This document shows, piece by piece, positions 7,123 to 47,014 of a stretch of DNA of 64,000 bases (position 1 is the first letter of the stretch; each line of letters begins with the position of its first letter). The position numbers and the translations under genes are program-made. The notes under the pieces were generated by a model that did not search any database, was not told where the DNA came from, and worked only from the letters and a program-made list of their open reading frames with translations. Source of the DNA: Patescibacteria group bacterium (lineage in GTDB: Bacteria > Patescibacteriota > Patescibacteriia > 2-12-FULL-57-11); the NCBI GenBank assembly GCA_004297205.1, contig SCUL01000001.1, positions 29,862-93,861 on the forward strand, given 5' to 3'.

Positions 7123-7699
7123 ACAGGCGGCTGGCGACGGTAGTCTGGACGCGGACGGACGCGGCCGAGGCGCCGCTGCCGGAGCGCAAGGCGAGCACGA
7201 CGGTCACCGACGGCTGCGGCACGACCGAGCCGGGCGGCGAGACGAACGGGTCGGTGATCGGATTGACGACGACCATGAACTGCTCGACGACCGCGCCTTC
7301 CGGAGTCAGCGAGGCCGTTTCCCCGTTTTCCTCGACGAGCAGGCAGGGGCTCGATCCCGTCGGACAGCCGCTCTCCGACCGGCGGAAGGAAAACGTGCCG
7401 CCGCCGGACGCCGACAGGAACAGCCGCGTGTCGGTCAACCCGAGCGGGCCGCCTTCGGCCGGATCGGCGTACCGGGCATAGTCGATGCTCCCCCGCCGGA
7501 CGCCGCGGGCCATCTGTTCGACGGCCACGCGCGCCGTCGCCGCCAGCTCCTCGCGGCCCAGCACCTTGCGCTCGGCGCGGTTGGCGATCAGGAACATGTC
7601 GGTCACGGCGACCATGGCCGTGGAAAAAATCGCCACGACCACCAGCACCTCCATCAAGGTAAAGCCGGCACGACCCTTTTGTTCCTTACCTCCAGTCAT
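7112..7699 (-). CDS. Type IV pseudopilin (prepilin-type N-terminal cleavage/methylation domain)
   Basis: MTGGKEQKGRAG|FTLMEVLVVVAIF: leader ends in Gly, mature residue F1, Glu at +5. Confidence 0.75.
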
Positions 7700-8309
7700 A
7701 TAATTCGCCTTGCATTTCCAAACGATGGCCGCGGCCGGACACGGTCCAGGTGACGAGGACGCGCACGTCGGTGCCTACTTCGACCTGGCCGCCCGGACAG
7801 GCCGTGCCGTCGACCGAGGCGATCGTCGCCGCGTCGCCCTCCACCATGCAGATCGGCCGCAGCGTCAGCAGGCGGCGGAACGGCGACTCCACGGCGCCGG
7901 CCGGCGGCGCGCCGTCGTACTGGCGCAGCGAGCCGTCGGGGTCCTCGTAGACCACGGCGTCGGCGTCGCTGATCCCGGCGGCCGTAAAGTCGATCCGCCA
8001 ATCTTTTTCCGGCATGAAAAACGGCACGCCGGTGCGGTCGCCGCCGGGACCGACCAGCGCCGTGTTCCAGGGAACGGCGGCCAGCCAGTTGCCGTCGCGG
8101 ATGACGCGGGACGCCTCCATGGCTTCGCGGGCCAGACCGGTGGCCACGACGCGCGTCTGGCTTTCGTTGGAGGCGTTGAGCGAACTCGAGACGAGCGACA
8201 GCGTCCCGGCAATGCCGGACACGATGATGCCGAGCGCGATGATCATCTCCAGCATGCCTTGGCCGCGCGGAGGGAGGGGGTCGCGTGTCGCGTGTCGGAA
8301 ACGCGTCAT
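7686..8309 (-). CDS. Type IV pseudopilin, PilV-like (non-canonical +1 residue)
   Basis: ...PPRG|QGMLEMIIALGIIVSG has Glu at +5 relative to a Gly cleavage site, followed by a hydrophobic helix. Confidence 0.6.
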   Translation of the reverse strand: MTRFRHATRDPLPPRGQGMLEMIIALGIIVSGIAGTLSLVSSSLNASNESQTRVVATGLAREAMEASRVIRDGNWLAAVPWNTALVGPGGDRTGVPFFMPEKDWRIDFTAAGISDADAVVYEDPDGSLRQYDGAPPAGAVESPFRRLLTLRPICMVEGDAATIASVDGTACPGGQVEVGTDVRVLVTWTVSGRGHRLEMQGELYDWR

Positions 8310-8911
8310 AGCGGCTGGTCTTCGATCCGCCGGCTGATGCGGTTGTAGCGCACCTCGCGCCGGGTGTTATTCAGCAGCTGTTCGAGCGTCACGGAAAACT
8401 CCTGCGCAGCCTGCGCGCCGTTGATCCAGACGTCCGGCCGCGGCGGCACGAACACCATGTCTCCCCCGCCGGCCGAGACGCGCACCCCGCCGGAGGCCGA
8501 AAACTTCTCCGTCAACAGCACTTCGCCCGCGTTCATGATGCGGTTGGCGTCGAGATCGGCGAACAACATCGCGTCCAACTCGCCCGTACCGACGTGGATG
8601 CCGTAGCCGCCGCGCGGGACGGTGTCGGACGGTGTTCCGCCGCCCGGACAGGTGCGCTCCGCCGTGCAGACCGGACCCGTCGGATCCCCGCTCAGGCACA
8701 GACAAACGGTGACGCCGGACGAGGCGCGGGATTCGGCGTCACGGATGAGCGAGGCGAAGGTCTGGGCGCCGAGGCGCAGCTCGTCGCTGCGCTCGCCGAC
8801 GCGGAAGTTGACCATGACGAGCGCCGACATCACGGCGAAGATGCTCATGGAGACAAGCAGCTCGATGAGGGTGAACCCTTCGACGTGGTTCAGGGCAGGC
8901 CCGCGCTTCAT
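8306..8911 (-). CDS. Type IV pseudopilin
   Basis: MKRGPALNHVEG|FTLIELLVSMSIFAVM is a classic prepilin motif. ATGA overlap with the pilD stop. Confidence 0.75.
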   Translation of the reverse strand: MKRGPALNHVEGFTLIELLVSMSIFAVMSALVMVNFRVGERSDELRLGAQTFASLIRDAESRASSGVTVCLCLSGDPTGPVCTAERTCPGGGTPSDTVPRGGYGIHVGTGELDAMLFADLDANRIMNAGEVLLTEKFSASGGVRVSAGGGDMVFVPPRPDVWINGAQAAQEFSVTLEQLLNNTRREVRYNRISRRIEDQPL

Positions 8912-9699
8912 AGCACGCCGTACAAATACCAATCGAGCATGGCCCGGCCCCAGAACAGCACGACGACGGTGGCCGCGCTCAGGAAGGTCCCGAACGGAAT
9001 CTGGCTGCCGACGGTCTTCCGCTTCGATGCCAGCAGGACCGCGCCGACCGCGCCGCCGGAGAGGTAGGCAATGAAGAGCGCCACCAGCACCAACGGCCAG
9101 CCCAGGAGCACGCCCATCAGCGCGCCGAGCCGGATGTCGCCGCCGCCGATCCACTTCCCGCCGGAAATGACGTACTGCAGCAGGAAGAAACCGCCGCCCA
9201 CCGCCGCGCCGATCAGCAGCATCGGCAACGGCACGCCGAGCGCCAGATTCCAAAGCAGGAACACGGCGATCGCCGGCAACGTGACCTGGTCCAGGATATA
9301 GCCGAACCATAGGTCGTACAGGAAGATCTGCACGAGGACCACGATGGCCGCCCAGTCGCGCAACAACGGCAGCACCCAGTCCGGCGCCAGGAACGCCTCG
9401 ACGCCGCCGAATGCCGCGGGACCCAGCCGGATCACGGCGGCAAGCGCAAACAGCGCCGCCGTCGCCAGCTCCAACAACGGATAGCTCGCGCCGATCACGC
9501 CGCGGCAGTATCTGCACTTTCCGTCGAGCACAAGGTACGACAAGACCGGGACCAGGTCCCAGACGGCGAGCGGGTGGCGGCACTTCGGGCAGTGGGAACG
9601 TCCTGTCGCCCACCGCTCCCCCTTCGCCTGCCGCGAAATCAAGGCCGTAAGGACGCTGCCGAAGACCAGTCCGAGCAGCGCCGCAAGCGCGACGATCAT
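8908..9699 (-). CDS. pilD: Prepilin peptidase (A24 family)
   Basis: N-terminal CPKCRHPL...CRYC zinc-binding tetracysteine, polytopic membrane protein with GGGDI/KL motifs. Confidence 0.85.
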   Translation of the reverse strand: MIVALAALLGLVFGSVLTALISRQAKGERWATGRSHCPKCRHPLAVWDLVPVLSYLVLDGKCRYCRGVIGASYPLLELATAALFALAAVIRLGPAAFGGVEAFLAPDWVLPLLRDWAAIVVLVQIFLYDLWFGYILDQVTLPAIAVFLLWNLALGVPLPMLLIGAAVGGGFFLLQYVISGGKWIGGGDIRLGALMGVLLGWPLVLVALFIAYLSGGAVGAVLLASKRKTVGSQIPFGTFLSAATVVVLFWGRAMLDWYLYGVL

Positions 9700-9747
9700 G
9701 CCGACAGTATACCAAAAGCGCCCCGGTTGTGCCGGGACGCTCGCGTT

Positions 9748-10245
9748 TCAGTCGCAGCTGATGCCGTCCGGCGCGGACGTGCACTGGATGATCCCGTCGC
9801 CGCTGGTGTCCGCGAACTCGGCCGCCGGGCGTTCCAGGCGGAAGGTGATGCGGTAGGCGGCGCAGGGCGCGGCGCAGGTGTAACGGTAGACCCGGCCGGT
9901 CGCGGCGTCGTTCTGCGGGTCGCGGGGTACCTGGCCCATGTAGACCTGCTCCCCCGCCGCGGCCGCGGCGCGGAAGCCGGTGCCGTCGAGGACGCGGGAA
10001 GCGGCTTCGCCGAGCACCAGGTCCTGGGCCGGATAGGCGCTGGCGCCGGCGTAATGCAGCTCCAGCGCGTTGCCGATCTGCTTGAGGTCGGCGAGCCGCT
10101 TGGCATCGCGCGACTTGAGCCGGGCGTCGTTGAGCGCCGCGACGCCGATCGTCGCCAGCAGGCCGATGATGGCGATGACGACGAGCAGCTCGATCAGGGT
10201 GAACCCTCCGACGTGGCTCAGGACGGGCCCTTTCGTGTGTCGCAT
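9748..10245 (-). CDS. Type IVa pilin (major pilin candidate 2)
   Basis: MRHTKGPVLSHVGG|FTLIELLVVIAIIGLLATI... with a C-terminal Cys pair (C..C...DGISCD). Confidence 0.8.
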   Translation of the reverse strand: MRHTKGPVLSHVGGFTLIELLVVIAIIGLLATIGVAALNDARLKSRDAKRLADLKQIGNALELHYAGASAYPAQDLVLGEAASRVLDGTGFRAAAAAGEQVYMGQVPRDPQNDAATGRVYRYTCAAPCAAYRITFRLERPAAEFADTSGDGIIQCTSAPDGISCD

Positions 10246-22103: not shown

Positions 22104-22205
22104 CTAGAACCGGAAGAATGGCAGGAGCATGCCGACGACGGTCATGAGCGCCACGAGCAGCACGAAGAAAACCTTGGCAGCGTGGAACAGCTGTTTGCGT
22201 TTCAT
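22104..22205 (-). CDS. Possible 33-aa hydrophobic micro-protein, ATGA-coupled to lepA stop
   Basis: MKRKQLFHAAKVFFVLLVALMTVVGMLLPFFRF: a basic N-terminus followed by a single TM. No clear RBS. Confidence 0.25.
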   Translation of the reverse strand: MKRKQLFHAAKVFFVLLVALMTVVGMLLPFFRF

Positions 22206-23998
22206 GCGTTTCTGCGTAATACCGCGAGATAGGTCTCCGGCGGAATGTCAACGCTCCCCTGCCCGGCCATGCGCTTCTTGCCCTTCTTCTGCTTCTCCAG
22301 GAGCTTGCGTTTGCGCGTCACGTCGCCGCCGCTCATTTTGGCGAGCACGTCCTTGCGGAAGGCCGAGATGCGCTCCGAGGCCACGACTTTGCCGCCGATC
22401 GAGGCCTGCAGCTTCACTTCGAAGTTCTGGCGCGGCAGGGATTCCTTGAGCTTCTCGACAACGGCGCGACCGACGCGCAGCGTTTCCTCGCGCGGCAGCA
22501 GCGCGGCCAGCGCCTCGACCGGCTCTTCGGCCACCAGAATGTCCAGCTTCACGATGTCGGCTTCGCGTTCGCCGATCAGTTCGTAATTCATGGAAGCGTA
22601 GCCGGAAGACGCCGACTTCAGCCGGTCGTAAAAGTCGACGAGGATCGAGGAGAGCGGAATGTCGTAATGGAGCACGACGCGGCCTTTGCCCTGCTCGCCG
22701 CTCGTCAGATACTCCGTGTTCTTGTAGATGCCGCGCTTCTCGGCCACCAGCGCCATGATGCCGCCGATGGCCGCCTCCGGCGCCACGACATCGAGTTTGA
22801 CCCACGGCTCTTCCACTTTGGCGAGGCGGGACGGGTCCGGAAACGCCGCCGGGCTCTTGATGACGTTCACCTGCCCGTCGGTCGTGCTGACGCGGTAGGC
22901 CACGGACGGCGTGGTCACCACGATCTCCATGTTGTGCTCGCGCTTCAAACGCTCCTGGACGATTTCCAAGTGGAGCAGGCCGAGCATGCCGCAACGGAAC
23001 CCGAAGCCGAGCGCCGCCGAATGTTCCGGCTCGAAGGCCAACGAGGCGTCGGAGAGTTTGAGTTTCAAGATGGCGTCACGCAGCCGTTCGTATTCGTTCC
23101 CTTCTTTGGGGAAGATGCCGGCGTAGACCATCGGTTTGACCTCGCGGTAACCGGCCAGCGGTTCCGCGCCTGCGCCTTTCACGGTGACGGTGTCGCCGAC
23201 GCGAACGCCCTCGATATTTTTGAGCGCCGTGACGATGTAGCCGATCATGCCGGTTTCCAGATCCGGCTCCGCGATGGGCTGCGGCGTGAAGCGGCCGACC
23301 TCGAGCGCCTGGCCGTCCAGCGCCGTGCCGATCAGGTGGATCGGCGCGTTGGTGCGCACGCTTCCATCGACGATGCGACAGTAGGCCACCACGCCTTTGA
23401 ACTCGTCGTACTTGGAGTCGAAAATGAGCGCGCGCAGCGGCGCGGACGGATTCCCCTTCGGCGGCGGGATGCGCGCGAGAATCGCGTCGAGGATGGCGGG
23501 GACGCCCTCGCCGGTTTTACCGGAGGCGCGCAGCACGTCCTCGGGCGCGCAGCCGATCAGCCCGACGATTTCCCCGATCACCTTGTCCACCTGCGCGTTC
23601 GGGAGGTCGATCTTGTTGACGACCGGGATGATCGTCAGATTCTGCTCCATCGCGAGGTACAGGTTGCCGAGCGTCTGGGCCTGCACGCCCTGCGTGGCAT
23701 CGACGAGCAGCAGCGCGCCTTCGACGGCGGCCAGCGAGCGGGAGACTTCATAGGTGAAGTCGACGTGTCCCGGCGTGTCGATCAGGTTCAGCACGTGGTC
23801 CTTGTAGGTCATGCGCGCCGGCTGCAGCTTGATGGTGATGCCGCGCTCGCGTTCCAAATCCATCATGTCCAAGAGCTGCTCCTTCATCTTGCGCTTCTCG
23901 ACCGTGCCGGTGATCTCAAGCAAACGATCGGCAAGCGTGGACTTGCCGTGGTCGATATGGGCGATGATGCAGAAGTTACGGATCCGGTTCTGATCCAT
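22202..23998 (-). CDS. lepA: Elongation factor 4 (LepA)
   Basis: True start is MDQNRIRNFCIIAHIDHGKSTLADRLL. C-terminal LepA_C signature. The upstream 80 aa of the ORF are spurious. Confidence 0.92.
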   Translation of the reverse strand: MDQNRIRNFCIIAHIDHGKSTLADRLLEITGTVEKRKMKEQLLDMMDLERERGITIKLQPARMTYKDHVLNLIDTPGHVDFTYEVSRSLAAVEGALLLVDATQGVQAQTLGNLYLAMEQNLTIIPVVNKIDLPNAQVDKVIGEIVGLIGCAPEDVLRASGKTGEGVPAILDAILARIPPPKGNPSAPLRALIFDSKYDEFKGVVAYCRIVDGSVRTNAPIHLIGTALDGQALEVGRFTPQPIAEPDLETGMIGYIVTALKNIEGVRVGDTVTVKGAGAEPLAGYREVKPMVYAGIFPKEGNEYERLRDAILKLKLSDASLAFEPEHSAALGFGFRCGMLGLLHLEIVQERLKREHNMEIVVTTPSVAYRVSTTDGQVNVIKSPAAFPDPSRLAKVEEPWVKLDVVAPEAAIGGIMALVAEKRGIYKNTEYLTSGEQGKGRVVLHYDIPLSSILVDFYDRLKSASSGYASMNYELIGEREADIVKLDILVAEEPVEALAALLPREETLRVGRAVVEKLKESLPRQNFEVKLQASIGGKVVASERISAFRKDVLAKMSGGDVTRKRKLLEKQKKGKKRMAGQGSVDIPPETYLAVLRRNA

Positions 23999-24128
23999 AG
24001 AACGCAGCCGATCATACGGGGAAAAGCCCGCCTTGGCTAACCCTCGTCGTTCTTTCTTCAGGCTTGACCGGAAGCCGTTTTTGTTGCATGATCTTGGCCG
24101 TCTTGGGAGCTCCCTTTCCCGGACCCAC

Positions 24129-24317
24129 GGAGGACGCGTGATCGACACCACCGGATACGGCCGCCTGCGCGCGCAGCAAGAGAACCGTCGCAAGCTCCGG
24201 GGCATGATCGCCGTCGCGATCATCCTCGGCCTCGTCAATTACCTGAAGTGGCAGGCCGAGCGCGACGCGCCGCCCCCGCCGCGCGACCTGCCGATCGCCA
24301 TCGGCCCCGGCATGTAG
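24129..24317 (+). CDS. Small protein with C-terminal TM helix (hypothetical)
   Basis: GTG preceded by ACGGAGGAC. Contains ...KLRGMIAVAIILGLVNYLKWQ. Plus-strand, inside an otherwise minus-strand region. Confidence 0.3.
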   Translation, partial: GGRVIDTTGYGRLRAQQENRRKLRGMIAVAIILGLVNYLKWQAERDAPPPPRDLPIAIGPGM

Positions 24318-24349
24318 GATTCGACACGTCTGCCGCCCTCTGAGCGGCC

Positions 24350-24377
24350 GCAGCGCACCCGCGCTGCTTCTTTTTTT
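24350..24377 (+). terminator. Rho-independent terminator, copy 1 (GCAGCGC-ACCC-GCGCTGC followed by a T-run)
   Basis: Perfect 7-bp GC stem, 4-nt loop and TTCTTTTTTT. The 33-nt string cgcagcgcacccgcgctgcttctttttttaca is repeated exactly at 25968..26000. Confidence 0.7.
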
Positions 24378-24408
24378 ACAGCCGTTCCCCTTCCCCATTG
24401 CTGGCGGA

Positions 24409-25944
24409 TTGACTCACCGCCTTTTTCATGATAGGAAAGTGACGCCTGGAGAACAACGAAAACAGTCGAGGTTCTTCGAGGTCGGTCCTGAACAAACGGA
24501 GCGAACATTGGAAATCCTGTTGATGCGGACGACGTTCCCCGAACCGACGTCATACCACGAAGCTACGGTTCGTCTGGCAGCCCTGAAGCAGGGCGTGAAG
24601 GAAGTCACGGCAGCCCTGAAGGACAAGCACCTGCGGTTTCCCGAAACCGGCCGTCGCATGACGACGGCGGAGTACTTCGAGTGGAAACTGACGGCGCGCA
24701 GGTCGCTGATGGAGAAGGAGCGCGAGATCGCCTTCCTTCGGGCATGGGTGAACGAGAACAAGTCGGTCGGCGTCCAGCACCACCAGGCCCAGTCGTCGCT
24801 GGACCAATCGATGCTGTCTGAATGCCGTACGGCCTTGCTGCGCCTCGATATGAAGGGACTGCTGCAGGAGCAGGAGCGCGTGTTGCTGCGACAGCTGGAA
24901 CATCGGCTCGGCGTCGGTCTGGATCCGCTGATCCAGAAGGCGCGGTCCTGCATGACGGGCAACCCGCACAATATCTTCTCGTACGGTTCCATGATCGTCC
25001 GGGCGACCCGCGACCAGGAGGACCTGGACGCCCTTCGCCGTCAATGGGAGTCCGTCAGCGGCGGCGCGTACGATCCCGTCGTCAAGGCACGGTGCGCGCG
25101 GGAGCATGTCCGGGCGCTGCTCGCGATGGGCGCCACCGACGAAGCGCGCGGAATCCTCGAATCCTGCGACGAATCGGTGATCGATACGGCCTACGCCTGG
25201 TTGTGGTTCGCGGAGGAGACGGAGGATGCCGACGCCCTGGAACGAGTGCGCGTCCTGGCAGCTTCACGCGCGGACTCGCGGGATGCGATGCTGTGGATCC
25301 TGACCTACCGAGTCTCGGGCGAGGCGGCCGACGCGCTGCAGGCGAATCGGATGGTCAGAGACCACAAGAATCCACCCCTCTTCCTGATGGTCCTCGGTCA
25401 GGCGTACGCGTGGCACGGGCGCGTCGAGGAAGCTCAGGCGATCCTGCGCGGACTTGACGACGAACGGGCGCTCGAGCTTTCCTGCACCATCGCCCTCGAG
25501 ACGCGCGATGAGGCGGATCGTACGCGCGCGATCAGCGTGCTGGAGCGGCATGTTCCCGAGAAACAGCGCACGATCCGCGAGGTCCTGCGCGTGCTCGCCT
25601 CGCACGGGGAGACGGATCTGGCTCTGCGGACCGTCAAGGATCTGAAGAGCCAGACGGACCGCTGTTTCGCCTTCGGACGCCTGTCGTGGGAGATCGACGA
25701 CCTCGACCTGCGCAAGAAGTTTCTGGTCAAAGCGGATGAACTGACGGTCAACTTGGTCGATAAGAGCAGTGCCGGTGCCATGGCCCTTCTGAACGTCAGC
25801 GTCGGCCACGCGATGCTGGACAACATCGCCCGCGCCGCGCAGATCGCGGAAACCATCAGGGACCGGGAATGCCGGTGCCGCGCCTTCTTGATCAGTTACG
25901 AAATCACGCGGGACGGCATGTCGCGCATCGTCGAAGACATCTAG
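24409..25944 (+). CDS. Hypothetical all-alpha protein (about 470-511 aa), start uncertain
   Basis: Long ORF opening at a TTG (24409). Internal ATG candidates exist, e.g. MRTTFPEP. No signal peptide or TM. Leu/Ala/Arg/Glu-rich helical repeats in the C-terminal two thirds. A TTGACT -35-like hexamer lies at 24409. Confidence 0.55.
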   Translation: MTHRLFHDRKVTPGEQRKQSRFFEVGPEQTERTLEILLMRTTFPEPTSYHEATVRLAALKQGVKEVTAALKDKHLRFPETGRRMTTAEYFEWKLTARRSLMEKEREIAFLRAWVNENKSVGVQHHQAQSSLDQSMLSECRTALLRLDMKGLLQEQERVLLRQLEHRLGVGLDPLIQKARSCMTGNPHNIFSYGSMIVRATRDQEDLDALRRQWESVSGGAYDPVVKARCAREHVRALLAMGATDEARGILESCDESVIDTAYAWLWFAEETEDADALERVRVLAASRADSRDAMLWILTYRVSGEAADALQANRMVRDHKNPPLFLMVLGQAYAWHGRVEEAQAILRGLDDERALELSCTIALETRDEADRTRAISVLERHVPEKQRTIREVLRVLASHGETDLALRTVKDLKSQTDRCFAFGRLSWEIDDLDLRKKFLVKADELTVNLVDKSSAGAMALLNVSVGHAMLDNIARAAQIAETIRDRECRCRAFLISYEITRDGMSRIVEDI

Positions 25945-25969
25945 ACGAACACGGCGGCACGAACCGCAC

Positions 25970-25997
25970 GCAGCGCACCCGCGCTGCTTCTTTTTTT
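25970..25997 (+). terminator. Rho-independent terminator, copy 2 (identical to 24350..24377)
   Basis: Identical hairpin and T-run immediately after the 24409..25944 stop. Confidence 0.7.
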
Positions 25998-26011
25998 ACA
26001 CGGAAATAAAA

Positions 26012-26045
26012 AAGGCGGGCTCCCGAGGGGGAACCCGTCGTCCGA
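26012..26045 (-). terminator. Terminator for the minus-strand 26057..27142 gene
   Basis: Minus transcript reads GGGUUCCC-CCUC-GGGAGCCC (8 bp with one G.U) followed by GCCUUUUUUAUUU. Confidence 0.5.
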
Positions 26046-26056
26046 CGGCCGCGCGC

Positions 26057-27142
26057 TCAGCCGAGCGCGGCGACGACGGCGTCCGCGATGCGCTCCGGCG
26101 CGTCCGGCGCGATCAGCGCCCGGAACGGGTCGGCGAGCGATCGCATGGCGTGCGCGCCGTGCGCCGTACCCGCGAGCACGTCGATGACGCGGTCGCGCAC
26201 CCCGGCCGGGGTCGTCGCCTTGATCGCGGCGCCGGCGGCCACGGCCGGCGAGTCGCCGCGCGGGTAGCCGACCGCGAGGCGCGGCTCCGGCGGCCCGTAG
26301 TGCGTGCTGATGCACGCCACGTGCGCCAGCACGGCCACGTAGCACTGCGTGCTGCCCCACGTCCCGACGACGACGTCGGAGCCGATCGTGAGCTCGTCCG
26401 CCCCGAGCGCCGTGGCCGCAGCCGGATCGATCCGGAACGACGCCGGCCAGGACGCGATGCGCTCCCGGATCTGGCCGAGCACTGGTTCGGCCATCTTGGG
26501 GTGCACGCGCGCGGCCACGCGCAGCTCCGGATGCTTCTGGAGCGGCTCGATGCCCTCGATGACGGTCGCGAGCTCCTCCGCGGGACGGTCGCCCCCCGAG
26601 TACCAGGTGAGCAGCTTCTCGGCGGTCCGTAGGCCGAGCGCCGTACGGACGCGTTCGCGCACGTCCACCTGCCGGGCGATCAGCTGACCGACGTGGGCGA
26701 ACGTCGGCTTGCCGCAGACGACGATCTGCGCGTCCGGCCACGCCTGGTGCGCGATACCCCCCGCCACCTCGTCGATGGCGCAGAGCACGCTCGGCCCGGC
26801 GCAGCCGCGCACCGAAGCGCGCTCGCCGGTGCCGTACAGATCCTCGATCCAAATCACCGGAATTCCGCGCGAGCGGCCCCAGTCCGTCCAGGCGATCTGC
26901 GCGCCCACCGCCGTGGCGCTCACCCCGACGACGATCGCGTCGGGCGCGTCGCCGTCGACCGGCATGCGGCCCTGCGACGTCGGACCGAGGTCCGGCGGCA
27001 GCACCGTCGCCGCCTTGGACTGCGGCGAGGCGTCGAGCACGATCTCGATCCCGACCCTGCGCTTCTTGAGGAGCGCGAGCGCCGGGACCGTCTCCTTGCA
27101 TCCTCCGATGTCGCCGAACACGGCGATGATGTGCTTCTGCAT
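26057..27142 (-). CDS. Hypothetical 361-aa protein, possibly GT-B-like/envelope-related (co-transcribed with murJ)
   Basis: Start MQKHIIAVFGDIGG preceded by GAAGGAGAG. The overlapping 422-aa ORF in another frame is Arg/Gly-rich junk. No confident family. Confidence 0.55.
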   Translation of the reverse strand: MQKHIIAVFGDIGGCKETVPALALLKKRRVGIEIVLDASPQSKAATVLPPDLGPTSQGRMPVDGDAPDAIVVGVSATAVGAQIAWTDWGRSRGIPVIWIEDLYGTGERASVRGCAGPSVLCAIDEVAGGIAHQAWPDAQIVVCGKPTFAHVGQLIARQVDVRERVRTALGLRTAEKLLTWYSGGDRPAEELATVIEGIEPLQKHPELRVAARVHPKMAEPVLGQIRERIASWPASFRIDPAAATALGADELTIGSDVVVGTWGSTQCYVAVLAHVACISTHYGPPEPRLAVGYPRGDSPAVAAGAAIKATTPAGVRDRVIDVLAGTAHGAHAMRSLADPFRALIAPDAPERIADAVVAALG

Positions 27143-27212
27143 GGAACCGTCTCTCCTTCTTCCCCGCTGGGGGTGCCGCGAACGTACGCGAGGAAATACC
27201 ATACGTCAAGGG

Positions 27213-37524: not shown

Positions 37525-37875
37525 TTAGAAGGAGCGTCCCTGCCGGCGGTTGCGGTTGCAATCGCGGCAGTAGACCGGACGGTCGCTGGACGGCTGGAAC
37601 GGGAGTTCCGTCACGTCCGCGCCGCAGGAGGCGCATTTGAGGCCCATTGCGGCCACGTCGACCATCGGCCGGGGCGCGCCGCGGTCGGCGCCGCCCATTG
37701 CCGGGCGGTCGGACTGCTTGCGGTTGCGGTTGCAATCGCGGCAGTAGACCGGGCGGTCCGACGTCGGCTGGAACGGGAGCTCAGTGATCGCCGCTCCGCA
37801 ACCGGCGCATTTGAGGCCCATTGCAGACACGTCGACCATCTGGCGCGCTCCGAAGCTGTTGTTGTCGTAAGCCAT
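37525..37875 (-). CDS. Tandem double zinc-ribbon protein (2 x CxxC-x18-CxxC)
   Basis: Two roughly 50-aa repeats: MVDV(S/A)AMGLKCA(G/S)CGA(A/D)(I/V)TELPFQP(T/S)SDRPVYCRDCNRNR. Confidence 0.65.
   Translation of the reverse strand: MAYDNNSFGARQMVDVSAMGLKCAGCGAAITELPFQPTSDRPVYCRDCNRNRKQSDRPAMGGADRGAPRPMVDVAAMGLKCASCGADVTELPFQPSSDRPVYCRDCNRNRRQGRSF
37541..37840. repeat. Intragenic tandem direct repeat (2 units of about 150 bp, roughly 85-90% identical)
   Basis: ctgc(c/t)(g/t)gcggttgcggttgcaatcgcggcagtagaccgg(a/g)cggtc... appears twice in tandem. Confidence 0.6.
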
Positions 37876-42535: not shown

Positions 42536-45500
42536 CTAAAAATTCCTGCCGTCCCCCGGATACTGGACCGACGCCGCGGCGGTCGCCGGATCGTAGTCGG
42601 CGGGAGAGATCACGTCGCTGCCAAAGGCGTAGTTGCCGTAGAGGACGTCATTCACGTCATCGACCATCTGATTCCAATCGGGGCCGTAGATCGTGGCCGC
42701 GATGAGTTCGGAGGTGATCCAACGCAGGATGCCGCCGGAAGCGACGGCGTAGACTTTGGGATCGGTCAGGAACTTCACGAGACTGACGCCGGGCTTCGAG
42801 GTGACGTTTGCGCCGAGCGGGATGGTGGCGAGGTCCGACGCGCTCACGATCTGGATGCCGTTGAAGTCAGGGTACCAGGTGAAATAGACGTTTTCGTTCG
42901 GAAACGCATGGCGCTTGCCGTCGGTGCCGACGTCATAGACGGCGGGGTTGTCCGGCGTTTTGACGAGCGCATGGACAGCGACGTTGAGTCTTTGGAGATT
43001 GTCGAGAAGAGCGGTGGTCGGGGCGTTTGACGGCAGGGGTGCGGAGGTTGCAGGTGCGGGAGAAGCCGAAACCGTTCCTGTGACGGTGAGGAGGATCGTA
43101 TCCGTGTATGTCCCGGATGCGCCGCCGTTTGCGGTGTAGAACCGGACGTACACCGAGTGGTTGCCTGCGGCACAGACGGACAGACCCGTACAAAGGTTCC
43201 AGGATTTCGTTCTCGAGTACGTCTCAAGAGGAATGTTCGTGAAGTCCGCGCTGTTTGAAATCGCCATCGTCGCCGTGTCCGAACCGCCGATGAGCGTCAG
43301 CGTCACCGCCGTGCTCGTCGTGGATGGAGCGCCGCCGTTCACCGAGATGCTGAACCCGGTCATGGGGGGCTGGGGCGCGGAAACGTCGCCCCCGCCGCGG
43401 GTGACAGCCACGGTCGCCTGCCCGAACAAACCGAAGGTCGAGAATTGCGTGGTGGTGCACGTGACGGTATTCGTCTGTTCGTTCACGGAACAGCCCGTGA
43501 GCACGCTCCAAGCGGTCCCGTTCCAGCGGTAGATCCGCAAACTGGATTCATCAATGCCGGAAACATCGGCGGAGGCATACGCAATTCTCAGCGTGATGGG
43601 GTTGTTGAAGGACGTGATGGCCGTCGAAACGCCGGAGAGCGCTTGCAGGCTGTACATGTAACTGCCAATGGCGGAATAACCGCTCGGGGCGCTCGCCGTT
43701 GCAAGCACGGAGGCGGAATCCAGCTGGTTGATCTGGAAATTCGCATCGCTGCCGGAGAACGCCGCGGGCACGGTGAGCGTGATGCCGGTAGCGCCGCTCA
43801 ACAGGTTCATGGTGCCGCCGGCGGCAGCCGTCATGTCGGCGCTCGTTGATGCGGTGACGGCCGCGGAGCCGGTGCATCCGGTCGTCGTGAATGTGGCGTC
43901 CGACCCGGTGCCCAGGTTCGCATACGAGTCATTGGAACGCGGACGGTAATGGTAGGTCGTACACGGCAACAGTCCCGTGAGCGAGACGCTGTGGCTCGTG
44001 ACACGCGGCGATGTATCCGCTTCGGTGGACGTGCTGCCGTAGGCCGTCGTCAATCCGTAGTTGACCATCGAAGACCCGAGCTCGTTTGTCGTCCAAACGA
44101 CTTCCGCTCCCGACGCATTCGGCGTGGCGACAACGGAGGAGAACGTCGGACCAGCGAGATCGAATGCGAGAGAAATTTCCGCCGCGTTCGCCGTCTCATT
44201 CACCGTGGTCGCGTCGTTGTCATACGCAGAAACCGTGAAATAGTAAGTCTGTGCCGTGAGGCCGCTGATGTTCTTCGATAAGACGTTACCGACGTCCACC
44301 GTCGTCGTATAAACGCCCGGGGACGTGCCGTACTTCACCTTGTATCCGGCGACGGTGGCATCCACGGTCGAAAGATTGTTCCATGACAGTTGAACCGTAC
44401 TCGTCACCTGCGATGCGCTGAAACTCTTCGGACTCATGATGGAGAGCGCCCACAATCGCGCCATCTGCGTATGTCCGGCGGCGGTCGGATGCACGGGATC
44501 GCCCCCGTATAAGGCGATGTGGTTGCCGTAATACGTCCAGAAATCAGGCCCGCCGCCGAGTGCGTTGTTGCTCCGCAAGGTGACGATGTTCGGCAGATAA
44601 TTTTCGGTGTACGTATAGACGTTGCTGTAACTCGGTTTGGCGAGCCACATGGACGAACTCGCCGCGCCGTACGTGCTGGCGAGCGTGTTCATGATGGTCT
44701 GCATCTGTGACTGAAAATTCGTCGGTGTGACGGTCGCAATGCCGTCGTTCACGCCGAGGTGGATCAGCCACTTGTTCGGCACCAATGCCGCCTGCCGCGT
44801 CGACCACTGGCCGGTAGCCATGAGCGTGATGTAGTCCGTGGCTTTATAGCTTCCCCAGCCTTCATTCATGACGAACACCGGGTATCCGTAGTAGGTCGTG
44901 AGTTCGTCATTCAGTTCCGACATCCAGCTTTTCTTGTAAGAGAGCGATGTGGGTCCGAACTGGGCGAAGTTGCGATTGTCTGCTGACAGTGAACCCGCTG
45001 GCGCGTCTATCCAGCTCGTCACGGCCGTGGCGCCGTAATCCGTTCCGTAATACCCCTCCGTGATGGAATCGCCGATCGCCGTAATGATGTCGCCGATGCC
45101 GATGCTTGTAGCAGTGTCCTGATCGCCGGCGCCGGTCTGCACCACCTGCGAAGAATTCACGACATGCGCATCCAGGGTATACGTACCCTTGGCAAGCCCA
45201 GTAAAACTCGCGGTGAACGGCGAACTCATGTCGTACAACGACTGCTCGGTGCCGAGCCCCTCATTCAAAATGAACTTCACGCCGCCTCCGGCCGGTAAGA
45301 CGGTGCTGCCGACCGTTGCTGCGACCGCAAGCGTCGTGCTCGTCTGGATGTACGGGATGTAAAAGGTACCGCCCTCGTCGGTGATCGCGACGGTCGCGGT
45401 CTGAGGAGAAAGCGCGACGCTGCGAGACGGCGACGTGATGCTGATCGCGTCACTCGACGTGCCGTAGGCGTAAAAATTGTCGAACGAACCCGCGACCACA

Positions 45501-47014
45501 TTCACCCCGGCGGCAACGTATCCGGAAGCAAACGGACTTGAACCGTCCGTGTACGTCATGAGCGGCGCGCCGCGCGTTCCGCCCACCGGGTAGATGTAGG
45601 CTTGCAACACGGGGTTTCCGCTCGGATTGTCGACGGCTTCGAGCTCCATCGTGTACCACACGCCGTTCGTCAGGGCGTAGCTCGCCGTGGTCAACGTCGT
45701 ATTGCCCGGTGCGCCGGCCGCGTGTTTCAACAAGTACCACGAGCTGGCATCGGCATGATGCAGCAGGTACCCGCCCCCGTTGCCCGTCGCCGCGGTTTTT
45801 CTCACCCACAACTGATGGTTATCTCCCGTTGATTCCAAAAAATCCACTTTCACCCGTTCGTTGACCCAGGCCGACTGGCCGTTTGCGATTTGATTCGTAT
45901 CGAACGTCCCAACGCCGCTCGTCTCACTCACCACTTTACCGCCGTTTCCCGCGGCGACCGCCCACGTTCCTGCGCCGACCGCTTGCCAGCTGTTTTGGCC
46001 GGCAATGGCCGCGGTGTTCAGCGCGTCAAACGTGTCCGAAAAAATCAAGTCCAACGGCTTTGAATTCGGATTGTTCGACGAAAGCCCTGTCCCGTCCGAT
46101 GTCACCGCCTTGACGTTGAACTCGTATCGGACGCCGTTCGTCAATCCCGTGACGGTCGCCGTTGCGGAAGCGCTCGTCCCATCGTCGAAGGTCGTCCATG
46201 TTGTTGCACCGTATATGCGGTATTGGATGACGTAATCTGTTACTGGATTGGCCGTCGAAGGCGCCGTCCAGTTCAGCAACATCGACCCGTCAAGACTGCT
46301 TGCCGTGAGGTCGGTAACGACCGCATCCGTGCCGGTCACGGAGACATCATCAAAGGTGCTCGCCGTCGTTGATGACTCGAGAAAAATCGGCTTATTCGTA
46401 ATGCTCGTGTCAACGGTCATGGAACACTGCGAGACAAGCCCGGCGCCCGTGTCCATCAACACATCGAAACCCGTTGCCGTCACGAGGAGTTTGTACGTCG
46501 CACCGCTGGTGAGCGTTCCACAACTTAGATTTGAATCTACTAACAATCCGTTGCTCCAGTGCAACGCATAAATCGGACCGGATGTTCCTGAGAGATCGAT
46601 AATATATGCCTTGGTGCCCGCTGCTTGAAAATTATAATCACCGTATCCAAGCAACTGAGCGGACCCCGGCGTCATCTTTGCGACGATGCTCAAATTCGTT
46701 CTTTGGAACGTACTCACGGAATAAACCGCCGTGTTCCCCCATGTTCCGGAAAGACTGTTTGAGACGGATAAGCTGCCGTTCTGCGAAATATTCGCGCCGG
46801 GATCGACGACCGTCCACTTGGCGGTGTCGATCGTCGAACCCGTGAACGTATCCGTCAAAAGAGTTGCTGCAAAAGTGAACGGTGCATGATGAAGGAAAGC
46901 GACGACGCTACCGATGACAAACAATGCGCCGAATACAAATACGCGTAACTTCGAGGACCCCCCCCCCGCGGTTTTTGCCGTTTTTTGATCATAATTCCGT
47001 TGCAACGACCGCAA
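42536..47014 (-). CDS. Giant secreted surface protein (1492 aa) with multiple FN3-like modules and an SGNH/GDSL hydrolase domain
   Basis: TTG-initiated ORF. Signal peptide ...LRVFVFGALFVIGSVVAFLHHAPFTFA. IGDSITEGYYG (GDSL block I). Several about 90-aa modules with ...YEFNVKAVT... / ...YYFTVSAYD... FN3 signatures. Confidence 0.8.
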   Translation of the reverse strand: MRSLQRNYDQKTAKTAGGGSSKLRVFVFGALFVIGSVVAFLHHAPFTFAATLLTDTFTGSTIDTAKWTVVDPGANISQNGSLSVSNSLSGTWGNTAVYSVSTFQRTNLSIVAKMTPGSAQLLGYGDYNFQAAGTKAYIIDLSGTSGPIYALHWSNGLLVDSNLSCGTLTSGATYKLLVTATGFDVLMDTGAGLVSQCSMTVDTSITNKPIFLESSTTASTFDDVSVTGTDAVVTDLTASSLDGSMLLNWTAPSTANPVTDYVIQYRIYGATTWTTFDDGTSASATATVTGLTNGVRYEFNVKAVTSDGTGLSSNNPNSKPLDLIFSDTFDALNTAAIAGQNSWQAVGAGTWAVAAGNGGKVVSETSGVGTFDTNQIANGQSAWVNERVKVDFLESTGDNHQLWVRKTAATGNGGGYLLHHADASSWYLLKHAAGAPGNTTLTTASYALTNGVWYTMELEAVDNPSGNPVLQAYIYPVGGTRGAPLMTYTDGSSPFASGYVAAGVNVVAGSFDNFYAYGTSSDAISITSPSRSVALSPQTATVAITDEGGTFYIPYIQTSTTLAVAATVGSTVLPAGGGVKFILNEGLGTEQSLYDMSSPFTASFTGLAKGTYTLDAHVVNSSQVVQTGAGDQDTATSIGIGDIITAIGDSITEGYYGTDYGATAVTSWIDAPAGSLSADNRNFAQFGPTSLSYKKSWMSELNDELTTYYGYPVFVMNEGWGSYKATDYITLMATGQWSTRQAALVPNKWLIHLGVNDGIATVTPTNFQSQMQTIMNTLASTYGAASSSMWLAKPSYSNVYTYTENYLPNIVTLRSNNALGGGPDFWTYYGNHIALYGGDPVHPTAAGHTQMARLWALSIMSPKSFSASQVTSTVQLSWNNLSTVDATVAGYKVKYGTSPGVYTTTVDVGNVLSKNISGLTAQTYYFTVSAYDNDATTVNETANAAEISLAFDLAGPTFSSVVATPNASGAEVVWTTNELGSSMVNYGLTTAYGSTSTEADTSPRVTSHSVSLTGLLPCTTYHYRPRSNDSYANLGTGSDATFTTTGCTGSAAVTASTSADMTAAAGGTMNLLSGATGITLTVPAAFSGSDANFQINQLDSASVLATASAPSGYSAIGSYMYSLQALSGVSTAITSFNNPITLRIAYASADVSGIDESSLRIYRWNGTAWSVLTGCSVNEQTNTVTCTTTQFSTFGLFGQATVAVTRGGGDVSAPQPPMTGFSISVNGGAPSTTSTAVTLTLIGGSDTATMAISNSADFTNIPLETYSRTKSWNLCTGLSVCAAGNHSVYVRFYTANGGASGTYTDTILLTVTGTVSASPAPATSAPLPSNAPTTALLDNLQRLNVAVHALVKTPDNPAVYDVGTDGKRHAFPNENVYFTWYPDFNGIQIVSASDLATIPLGANVTSKPGVSLVKFLTDPKVYAVASGGILRWITSELIAATIYGPDWNQMVDDVNDVLYGNYAFGSDVISPADYDPATAAASVQYPGDGRNF

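Follow-up and report, generated by a model that had tools for sequence, protein, structure and literature searches.

The window analysed here, a 64,000-nt (64-kb) stretch of contig SCUL01000001.1 from a metagenome-assembled genome (MAG) of a Patescibacteria group bacterium with 65% GC, carries two plus-strand genes between lepA and the end of the murJ operon. One is a small open reading frame (ORF) and the other a large gene (locus tag EPO33_00320), and each is followed by an exact copy of the same short sequence, here termed T'. Comparison with related genomes leads us to favor, with moderate confidence, the view that the large gene was inserted beside an ancestral small ORF and its T', and that the inserted gene ends in a second copy of T'. 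As read from its sequence, the interval appears to be organized as two monocistronic insulated units, P-small-T' and P-large-T' (P denoting a promoter), which face the end of the murJ operon. GC content at the three codon positions (GC1, GC2 and GC3) indicates that the credible genes from 168 to 31846 all lie on the minus strand except these two, as the first-pass annotation had recognized, and both show coding GC1/2/3 values that are typical of the genome.

Examination of the repeat reveals that CGCAGCGCACCCGCGCTGCTTCTTTTTTTACA is present in the whole window as two exact copies, both on the plus strand (24349-24380 and 25969-26000). An exact duplication had been noted earlier as 33 nt long; the duplication stands, but the repeat is 32 nt and the coordinates were off by one, given that the preceding base is C at 24348 and A at 25968. 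The number of copies in the 64 kb stays at two when up to three mismatches are allowed, and a looser hairpin pattern tolerating two mismatches finds only the same two sites. In a shuffled-sequence control, matches to the 32-mer were seen in 0 of 100 shuffles. The sequences flanking the two copies are unrelated, so that the edges of the repeat are sharp, and no other intergenic repeat of at least 18 nt is shared within the window. Each copy folds, as had been described, into a GC hairpin followed by a T-run, with a 7-bp stem (6 GC pairs), a 4-nt loop and then TTCTTTTTTT; the stem and U-tract give -14 to -18 kcal/mol and the stem-loop in its context a minimum free energy of -15.9 to -18.2 kcal/mol, and four bases of the repeat (a 5' C and a 3' ACA) are non-structural. 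Copy 1 (hairpin 24350-24367, T-run 24368-24377) serves as the candidate terminator of the small ORF, 31 nt past its stop (24317). Copy 2 is the corresponding terminator of the large gene, 24 nt past its stop (25944), and stands back to back with the convergent minus-strand terminator of a 381-aa gene (26037-26016).

The relatives used for comparison are the contigs encoding the closest LepA proteins (93%, 93% and 86% identical) in a collection of 5.8 billion proteins. Their relatedness was judged from pairwise identities of LepA, MurJ and the 381-aa protein, which gives the order ((window, L008), L012), L013. In the nearest relatives (L008-L011) LepA is 93.5% identical, and the lepA nucleotide identity is 86.7% at best. 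The flanking synteny, comprising murJ, a 361-aa gene, lepA, recJ, RNase H and pil genes, is kept in all relatives, and the content of the spacer next to lepA differs from one to the next. In L008-L011 it is empty, measuring just 105 nt, with the terminator of the 361-aa gene directly abutting the lepA promoter. In L012 it holds two opposite-strand genes coding for proteins of 331 and 320 aa, with an N-terminal transmembrane (TM) segment and an HExxH-like motif. In L013 a same-strand AAA_28 gene is accompanied by a 53-aa ORF on the opposite strand, and this ORF ends in a single terminator, ACGCAGCGCACATGCGCTGCTTTCTTTTTT. In the window it holds the small ORF with T' and then the large gene with T'. 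The 53-aa ORF of L013 is a homolog of the small ORF of the window (E = 2e-11; 40% identical over the BLASTP alignment) at the orthologous position, and the single L013 terminator aligns with T', being orthologous to copy 1, with about 90% sequence conservation between the two genomes. No homolog of the large gene is found within the loci of L008-L013, and the annotated orthologous neighborhoods contain no integrase or recombinase within 10 kb on either side.

To judge from these contents, the spacer between lepA and the 381-aa gene-murJ end is a hotspot of accessory-gene turnover in this Uhrbacteria-like lineage. Given the tree order, parsimony suggests that the small ORF with one T' was the ancestral content of the spacer and that the window branch acquired the large gene as a lineage-specific insertion; L008 would have lost the small ORF and T', and L012 would have replaced them. 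The first-pass annotation had proposed an insertion or duplication event delivering the large gene, and both comparisons it called for agree with an insertion: the segment is absent from L008-L011, and the small-ORF homolog in L013 is followed by only one terminator of the T' type. The AAA_28-domain ATPase gene of L013 (L013:8506-9597) has its own promoter, TTGACA-17-TAGGGT, and is oriented opposite to the other hotspot inserts; its terminator, CCGCTG-ACCC-CAGCGG with a T-run, has the same ACCC loop as T' and a similar tail.

The spacer of L012 (GCA_041643055.1; L012:7828-9895) repeats the layout of the window with different genes. Its two opposite-strand genes code for paralogs of 331 and 320 aa that are 27% identical at the protein level, carry HELYH and HEISH metalloprotease-like motifs and have no Pfam match. 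At the DNA level they have just two stretches in common: 18 identical nt at the ribosome-binding site, CAAGGAGGTGGGGACATG, and a terminator, AGCGACCC(C)ACCCGGGCCGCTTCTTTTT, that is nearly the same in both, being exact over 22 nt and about 30 nt long if one indel is allowed. The terminator can be aligned with T', from which its stem differs by two compensatory pair changes and one mismatch, and the junction from T' to the convergent terminator of the 360/381-aa gene can be aligned between L012 and the window. Thus, the arrangement P-gene-T'-P-gene-T' is seen in two genomes with unrelated cargo, the terminator copies being identical within a genome and different between genomes. No other exact non-coding direct repeats of such kind occur in about 22 kb of each relative or in the 64-kb window.

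Across five T'-type sequences pairing is kept in 90.9% of cells, as against 18-61% for slid controls (a small sample), and two stem pairs show compensatory double changes among the relatives (A-U to G-C, and G-C to C-G). Since the L012 stem differs by such compensatory changes, selection appears to act on the hairpin structure rather than on a sequence recognized by a protein. On the strength of its fold and these substitutions, T' is predicted to be a structurally conserved intrinsic (Rho-independent) terminator on the plus strand. The 32-mer contains neither a GTTRRRY motif nor an Xer-like core, there are no inverted repeats at the ends of the inserted segment, and an Rfam scan of 23800-26200 returned nothing relevant.

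The large gene had been annotated as an ORF opening with TTG at 24409 and ending at 25944. That ORF exists, but its first codon likely belongs to the -35 hexamer TTGACT of a promoter (TTGACT-17-TAGGAA; 24409..24437, plus strand), which is followed by a 5' untranslated region (UTR) of ~70 nt. The coding sequence would then run from 24508 or 24523 to 25944, giving 478 aa from TTG 24508, which a GGAG precedes by 6 nt, or 473 aa from ATG 24523 (the NCBI call); consistent with this, alignments of homologs with the long ORF begin only at about residue 32-40 of the query. Searching 1.84 billion representative proteins exhaustively with HMMER recovered 15 matches at E <= 1e-10, namely the protein itself and P0002-P0015, which are mostly full-length (about 470-500 aa; 23-34% identity), and about 35 further proteins, roughly 140 aa in length, whose similarity is confined to residues about 40-165. 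A word-indexed protein search returned only the query, and a search with the subfamily alignment for related loci gave three genome loci and no metagenome or viral loci. The family was likewise not found in IMG/VR or, by tblastn, in GenBank phages and PLSDB plasmids. The MAGs that carry full-length members belong to Uhrbacteria and other Patescibacteria, and the gene lies there in mutually unrelated neighborhoods, usually opposite in orientation to its neighbors; three of seven loci lie within 1 kb of a tRNA gene.

All family members show an invariant TTGAC and a TAGGAT-like -10 element (N16/17) about 95 nt before the start, as exemplified by TTGACA-17-TAGGAT in L002 and TTGACA-16-TAGGAT in L007. 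Because this promoter is conserved across the family in unrelated contexts, the gene seems to travel with its own promoter. The promoters of the window (24409-24437), L002 (L002:7890-7918) and L007 (L007:5893-5920) share the unusual TAGGAT-type -10 and a T-rich spacer, and the 5' UTR that follows family promoters is about 70-95 nt long and includes an AACAAG..AAG segment that is conserved in part. The terminators of other members, where visible, are unrelated to T', which suggests a local origin for the T' that follows the window gene.

A second member of the family is also bracketed by a repeat. In L002 (GCA_028715505.1, JAQURS010000002.1) the gene for P0003 lies between the two copies of a 184-nt direct repeat (7518-7701 and 9595-9778; 99% identity), which contains a bidirectional terminator hairpin and an inverted tRNA T-arm fragment and folds very stably (z = -7.4). 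At its start the repeat has a 20-nt stretch nearly identical to the 3' end of the neighboring tRNA-Ser(GGA), and its last 23 nt are that 3' end itself, so that four copies of this att-like sequence are present in total. The duplicated tRNA-Ser 3' ends are those expected of a tRNA-targeted element, but no integrase is found within 8 kb of the repeat. That two of the seven family members sit between hairpin-containing repeats is notable. At the five other family loci there is neither a flanking direct repeat of at least 13 nt nor a T', and a flanking repeat was accordingly rejected as a hallmark of the family.

In light of these observations, we propose that the ancestral unit would have consisted of a promoter, a gene for a membrane protein of roughly 55 aa and the terminator T', all on the opposite strand. 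On the window branch, a second self-contained unit would have been inserted next to T', giving P-small-T' followed by P-large-T'; this unit would comprise a sigma-70-type promoter, a 5' UTR of ~70 nt and a gene of 473-478 aa. The route that we prefer would be a single-crossover (Campbell-type) recombination through T', with circularized or taken-up DNA carrying the gene and a T' sequence as the partner. Such a crossover is favored because it directly yields T'-gene-T' with sharp edges, because it fits the layouts of L012 and L002, and because type IV pilus or competence-type genes (PilM, T2SSE/F) adjoin the locus in the relatives. Once in place, copy 1 would end the small-ORF transcript and copy 2 that of the inserted gene, and copy 2 together with the convergent terminator would stop antisense read-through into the murJ operon. 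An origin of the second unit by tandem duplication of the small-ORF unit was considered and rejected, since the two units have no similarity beyond T'; a weak resemblance between the two promoters of the window is explained by the family-typical promoter of the large gene.

Several points weigh against this reconstruction. The relatives are related only at the level of a genus (86.7% nucleotide identity in lepA; 63% identity in the 381-aa protein), so that a gain in the window and a loss elsewhere are not strictly separable, and the comparison is one between genomes at this distance, not between alleles of one population. With 32 bp, the repeat comes close to the shortest homology that RecA-dependent recombination can use. 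Flanking repeats occur at only two of the seven family loci, and the -10 element of the window promoter, TAGGAA, lacks the consensus final T and falls below the rule of a promoter scanner, which asks for T at position 6. Codon usage of the large gene is only mildly atypical (codon-bias distance B = 0.29, within the range of 0.14-0.42 for resident genes) and gives no compositional sign of recent foreign origin; a recent foreign origin argued from composition was rejected on this value and on the host-like GC1/2/3. Finally, homogenization explains terminators that are identical within and different between genomes equally well. We infer that T' was duplicated by recombination through T', a route that is preferred here and is not separable from homogenization at a later time.

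Homogenization by gene conversion is the main rival explanation, and we regard it as unlikely. Under it, the two plus-strand genes would each have had a terminator of its own, or would go back to an old duplication, and their neighboring terminators would have been made alike by concerted evolution, and their identity would say nothing about how the large gene arrived. Uniformity within genomes together with divergence between them is the classic signature of such a process, and the L012 paralogs, at 27% protein identity, have near-identical terminators and the shared 18-nt stretch with no other nucleotide similarity. Conversion, however, requires similarity to begin with, and the terminators of the other family members are unrelated to T'. 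Moreover, the repeat takes in the four non-structural bases at very sharp edges, and there is a single such pair in each of the roughly 22-64 kb examined.

The remaining alternatives are weak or contradicted. The first is that T' is an attachment or recombination site that stacks promoter-bearing single-gene cassettes at the lepA hotspot, in loose analogy to integron attC sites or Xer-dependent pdif modules, either through a recombinase encoded elsewhere or by a RecA-dependent route. If true, a cassette joint of this kind would explain the independent duplications of T' in the window and in L012, as well as why the T' sequences of the window and L013 are so unusually well conserved and why repeats with a hairpin flank the L002 member. 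The recurrence of [P-gene-T'][P-gene-T'] at one site in two genomes with unrelated cargo is in keeping with this idea, as are the roughly 90% conservation of T' next to a small protein only 40% identical, and the L002 member, whose flanking repeat contains a hairpin and lies at the 3' end of a tRNA. It is nevertheless improbable: the stem in L012 has been altered by compensatory changes that point to selection for structure, the arrays have only two units, the annotated orthologous neighborhoods contain no recombinase within about 10 kb, and both the lack of a GTTRRRY or Xer-like core and the lack of T' at five other family loci count against it.

That the arrangement is an assembly artifact, in which a 1,620-bp segment carrying the gene and T', circular or located elsewhere, was threaded into the contig at T', is very improbable. 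Repeat-segment-repeat is indeed the product of a loop in an assembly graph, the source is a MAG, and a Logan contig of the L002 homolog ends in the flanking repeat at both sides. Against this, 32 nt is shorter than the final k-mers of common metagenome assemblers, the GC1/2/3 of the large gene is host-like, and an analogous two-unit layout was assembled independently in L012. We give slightly less weight still to T' being a dispersed REP-like terminator that follows many genes, which would make the flanking arrangement coincidental, as the first-pass annotation had itself cautioned. The search space for copies in the source genome was the 64-kb window, which leaves this idea some room, but only two copies are found there, even at three mismatches, and the window has no further intergenic repeat of 18 nt or more. 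Only the one orthologous copy is present in the relatives, over about 65 kb of their DNA, the exact 32-mer has 0 matches in the GTDB species representatives and a degenerate T' pattern has 0 matches in the JGI metagenomes. As far as could be searched, then, it is not a common repetitive element. Least probable of all is that the small ORF and copy 1 form a leader-peptide attenuator controlling read-through into the large gene as one operon: the two genes do lie on the same strand with a gap of about 190 nt, but L013 has the small ORF and T' without the large gene, the family-conserved promoter of the large gene sits downstream of T', and neither an alternative antiterminator pairing nor an Rfam match was seen.

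Comparison with known systems places the locus in context. It resembles Campbell-type integration and islets that lie between direct repeats (an attL/attR-like duplication of the crossover sequence) in its order of direct repeat, insert and direct repeat, in its sharp boundaries, and in that the repeat sequence is present once in the uninserted state (L013); it differs in having no integrase, tRNA or att core, an insert of only 1.6 kb and a 32-bp terminator as the crossover. Similarly, integron cassettes and pdif modules are small single-gene modules that end in a similar imperfect palindrome and occur in one orientation at one locus, but the units described here have their own promoters, a canonical terminator with a U-tract and no intI, attI or Xer-type core, and they number only two. 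Unlike insertion sequences and transposons, the segment has no terminal inverted repeats and no transposase match, and its 32-bp repeat compares with target-site duplications of 2-14 bp; unlike REP/BIME palindromes, T' is present as two copies in 64 kb and not as many. The locus has no tRNA within 20 kb in the window, in contrast to what is seen with tRNA-targeted integrative elements. A search of the literature for terminator-flanked insertions was unproductive.

Phage morons offer a further parallel; they are described as independent transcription units added between conserved genes (PMC3594210). As in morons, the insert is one gene that has its own promoter and ends in a factor-independent terminator, the two genes that it separates are neighbors in a close relative, and the N-terminal domain of the window protein has homologs in phage-like contigs. 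In contrast to morons, the setting is a core chromosomal region, with lepA, recJ and murJ in conserved synteny, rather than a phage or prophage, the composition is host-like, and a duplicated host terminator brackets the insert, which falls outside the definition of a moron. By analogy, the unit of the window would behave functionally like a moron without being a member of the class. The locus is a well-documented case of a known type of event and not a new mechanism, and current understanding is not overturned by it.

The protein encoded by the inserted gene had been described as all-helical and uncharacterizable; it is indeed all-helical, but its full-length homologs show that it is no orphan. 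AlphaFold2 models (pLDDT 85.9 for the whole protein and 91.7 for the N-terminal domain) predict an N-terminal antiparallel coiled-coil hairpin followed by a TPR-like α-solenoid of roughly 330 C-terminal residues. The N-terminal domain shows the motif F.EP...EA..R...L..(I)Q.QL....R.DP.G.R(L/M)...EY..W(R/K). Fold-search matches are generic (Tom70/71, the anaphase-promoting complex APC/C, PPR proteins and DksA-type coiled coils), and the top Foldseek matches of the solenoid are all TPR or PPR proteins with TM-scores of only about 0.3. The predicted stack of helix-turn-helix repeats in the C-terminal part recalls TPR/PPR scaffold proteins such as Tom70/71, APC/C subunits and LbcA; unlike in these, the Pfam TPR matches (TPR_19, TPR_14 and ANAPC3) are all below the gathering score, and the N-terminal hairpin domain has no described family. 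The large protein and its N-domain relatives gave no meaningful family in Pfam, NCBIfam, PADLOC or PHROGs, a sequence profile search of the PDB gave no match, and no transposase or recombinase family is matched by the large protein. We accordingly define here a candidate two-domain family, for which the models suggest at most a function as a protein-binding scaffold.

Stand-alone versions of the N-terminal domain, about 140 aa long, are encoded in the phage-like contigs L014-L017 (in L014 by the gene 8001-8423), which also carry an SNF2 helicase (phrog_62), DNA methyltransferases and DUF6884. For one such protein, P0020, the contig neighbors match phage helicase and methyltransferase PHROGs, suggesting that the domain also circulates on phage-like elements. 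P0018 and P0035 (550 aa) contain three copies of the domain each.

The small ORF (24138..24317, plus strand) had been given as 63 aa with a C-terminal TM segment. It codes instead for 59 aa from GTG 24138, the earlier start at 24129 being the ribosome-binding site (GGAGGA, 24129-24134). It has coding-like GC1/2/3, and its hydrophobic helix lies in the middle (residues about 22-36), ahead of a Pro-rich tail. The motif DAPPPPRDLPI is conserved at the C-terminus of this protein of 53-59 aa in the window (24138-24317) and L013 (9712-9873), and no meaningful match to a curated family was obtained in Pfam, NCBIfam, PADLOC or PHROGs. It is probably a small membrane protein, whose gene is divergent from lepA in both genomes. 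Thus lepA, previously placed upstream of it, is transcribed away from it, with the promoter-like sites of the two genes back to back: TAGCCA-17-TATGAT for lepA (24011..24039, minus strand), with a -10 element kept in the relatives and CGTATGATC conserved in the alignment of L008, L012 and L013, and TTGACC-17-CATGAT for the small ORF (24064..24092, plus strand), with a -35 segment, CCGGTCAAGCCTG, that is common to L012.

The core gene bordering the hotspot on one side is lepA (22202..23998, minus strand, start ATG 23998), which codes for elongation factor 4 (598 aa; Pfam GTP_EFTU, LepA_C and EFG_C) with 93% identical orthologs P0055 and P0056. The core gene on the opposite side codes for the conserved 381-aa protein (26057..27202, minus strand); it lies downstream of murJ, has orthologs beside murJ in L008-L013 and has no match in Pfam, NCBIfam or PADLOC. 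The terminator of this gene and of the murJ operon (CGGGTTCCCCCTCGGGAGCCCG with a T-run; 26006..26037, minus strand) is conserved in L008, L012 and L013. The 381-aa protein diverges faster (63%, 57% and 43% identity in L008, L012 and L013) than LepA (86-93%) and MurJ (72-90%).

Two other features of the window are recorded here. Exact direct repeats of 33 nt and 21 nt, 174 nt apart (37546-37824), lie inside the minus-strand ORF 37525-37875 and suggest that 174 nt of a small gene were duplicated in tandem within it. A 1,492-aa ORF (42536-47014, minus strand) departs from its neighbors in GC1 (0.50), GC2 (0.53) and GC3 (0.74), as against about 0.66, 0.45 and 0.85, and has a high codon-bias distance of 0.35; it may code for a large repetitive or surface protein, or be of foreign origin.

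Patescibacteria have tiny genomes, and little is known of how they gain genes. The spacer described here is a chromosomal hotspot that, among four related genomes, is empty in one and occupied by three different gene sets in the others, and in it a gained gene would have arrived as an insulated promoter-to-terminator unit whose end is a copy of the terminator already resident there. That L012 shows the same layout suggests that terminators may guide or stabilize gene gain, either as short patches of homology or as insulators that shield neighboring operons from antisense transcription.

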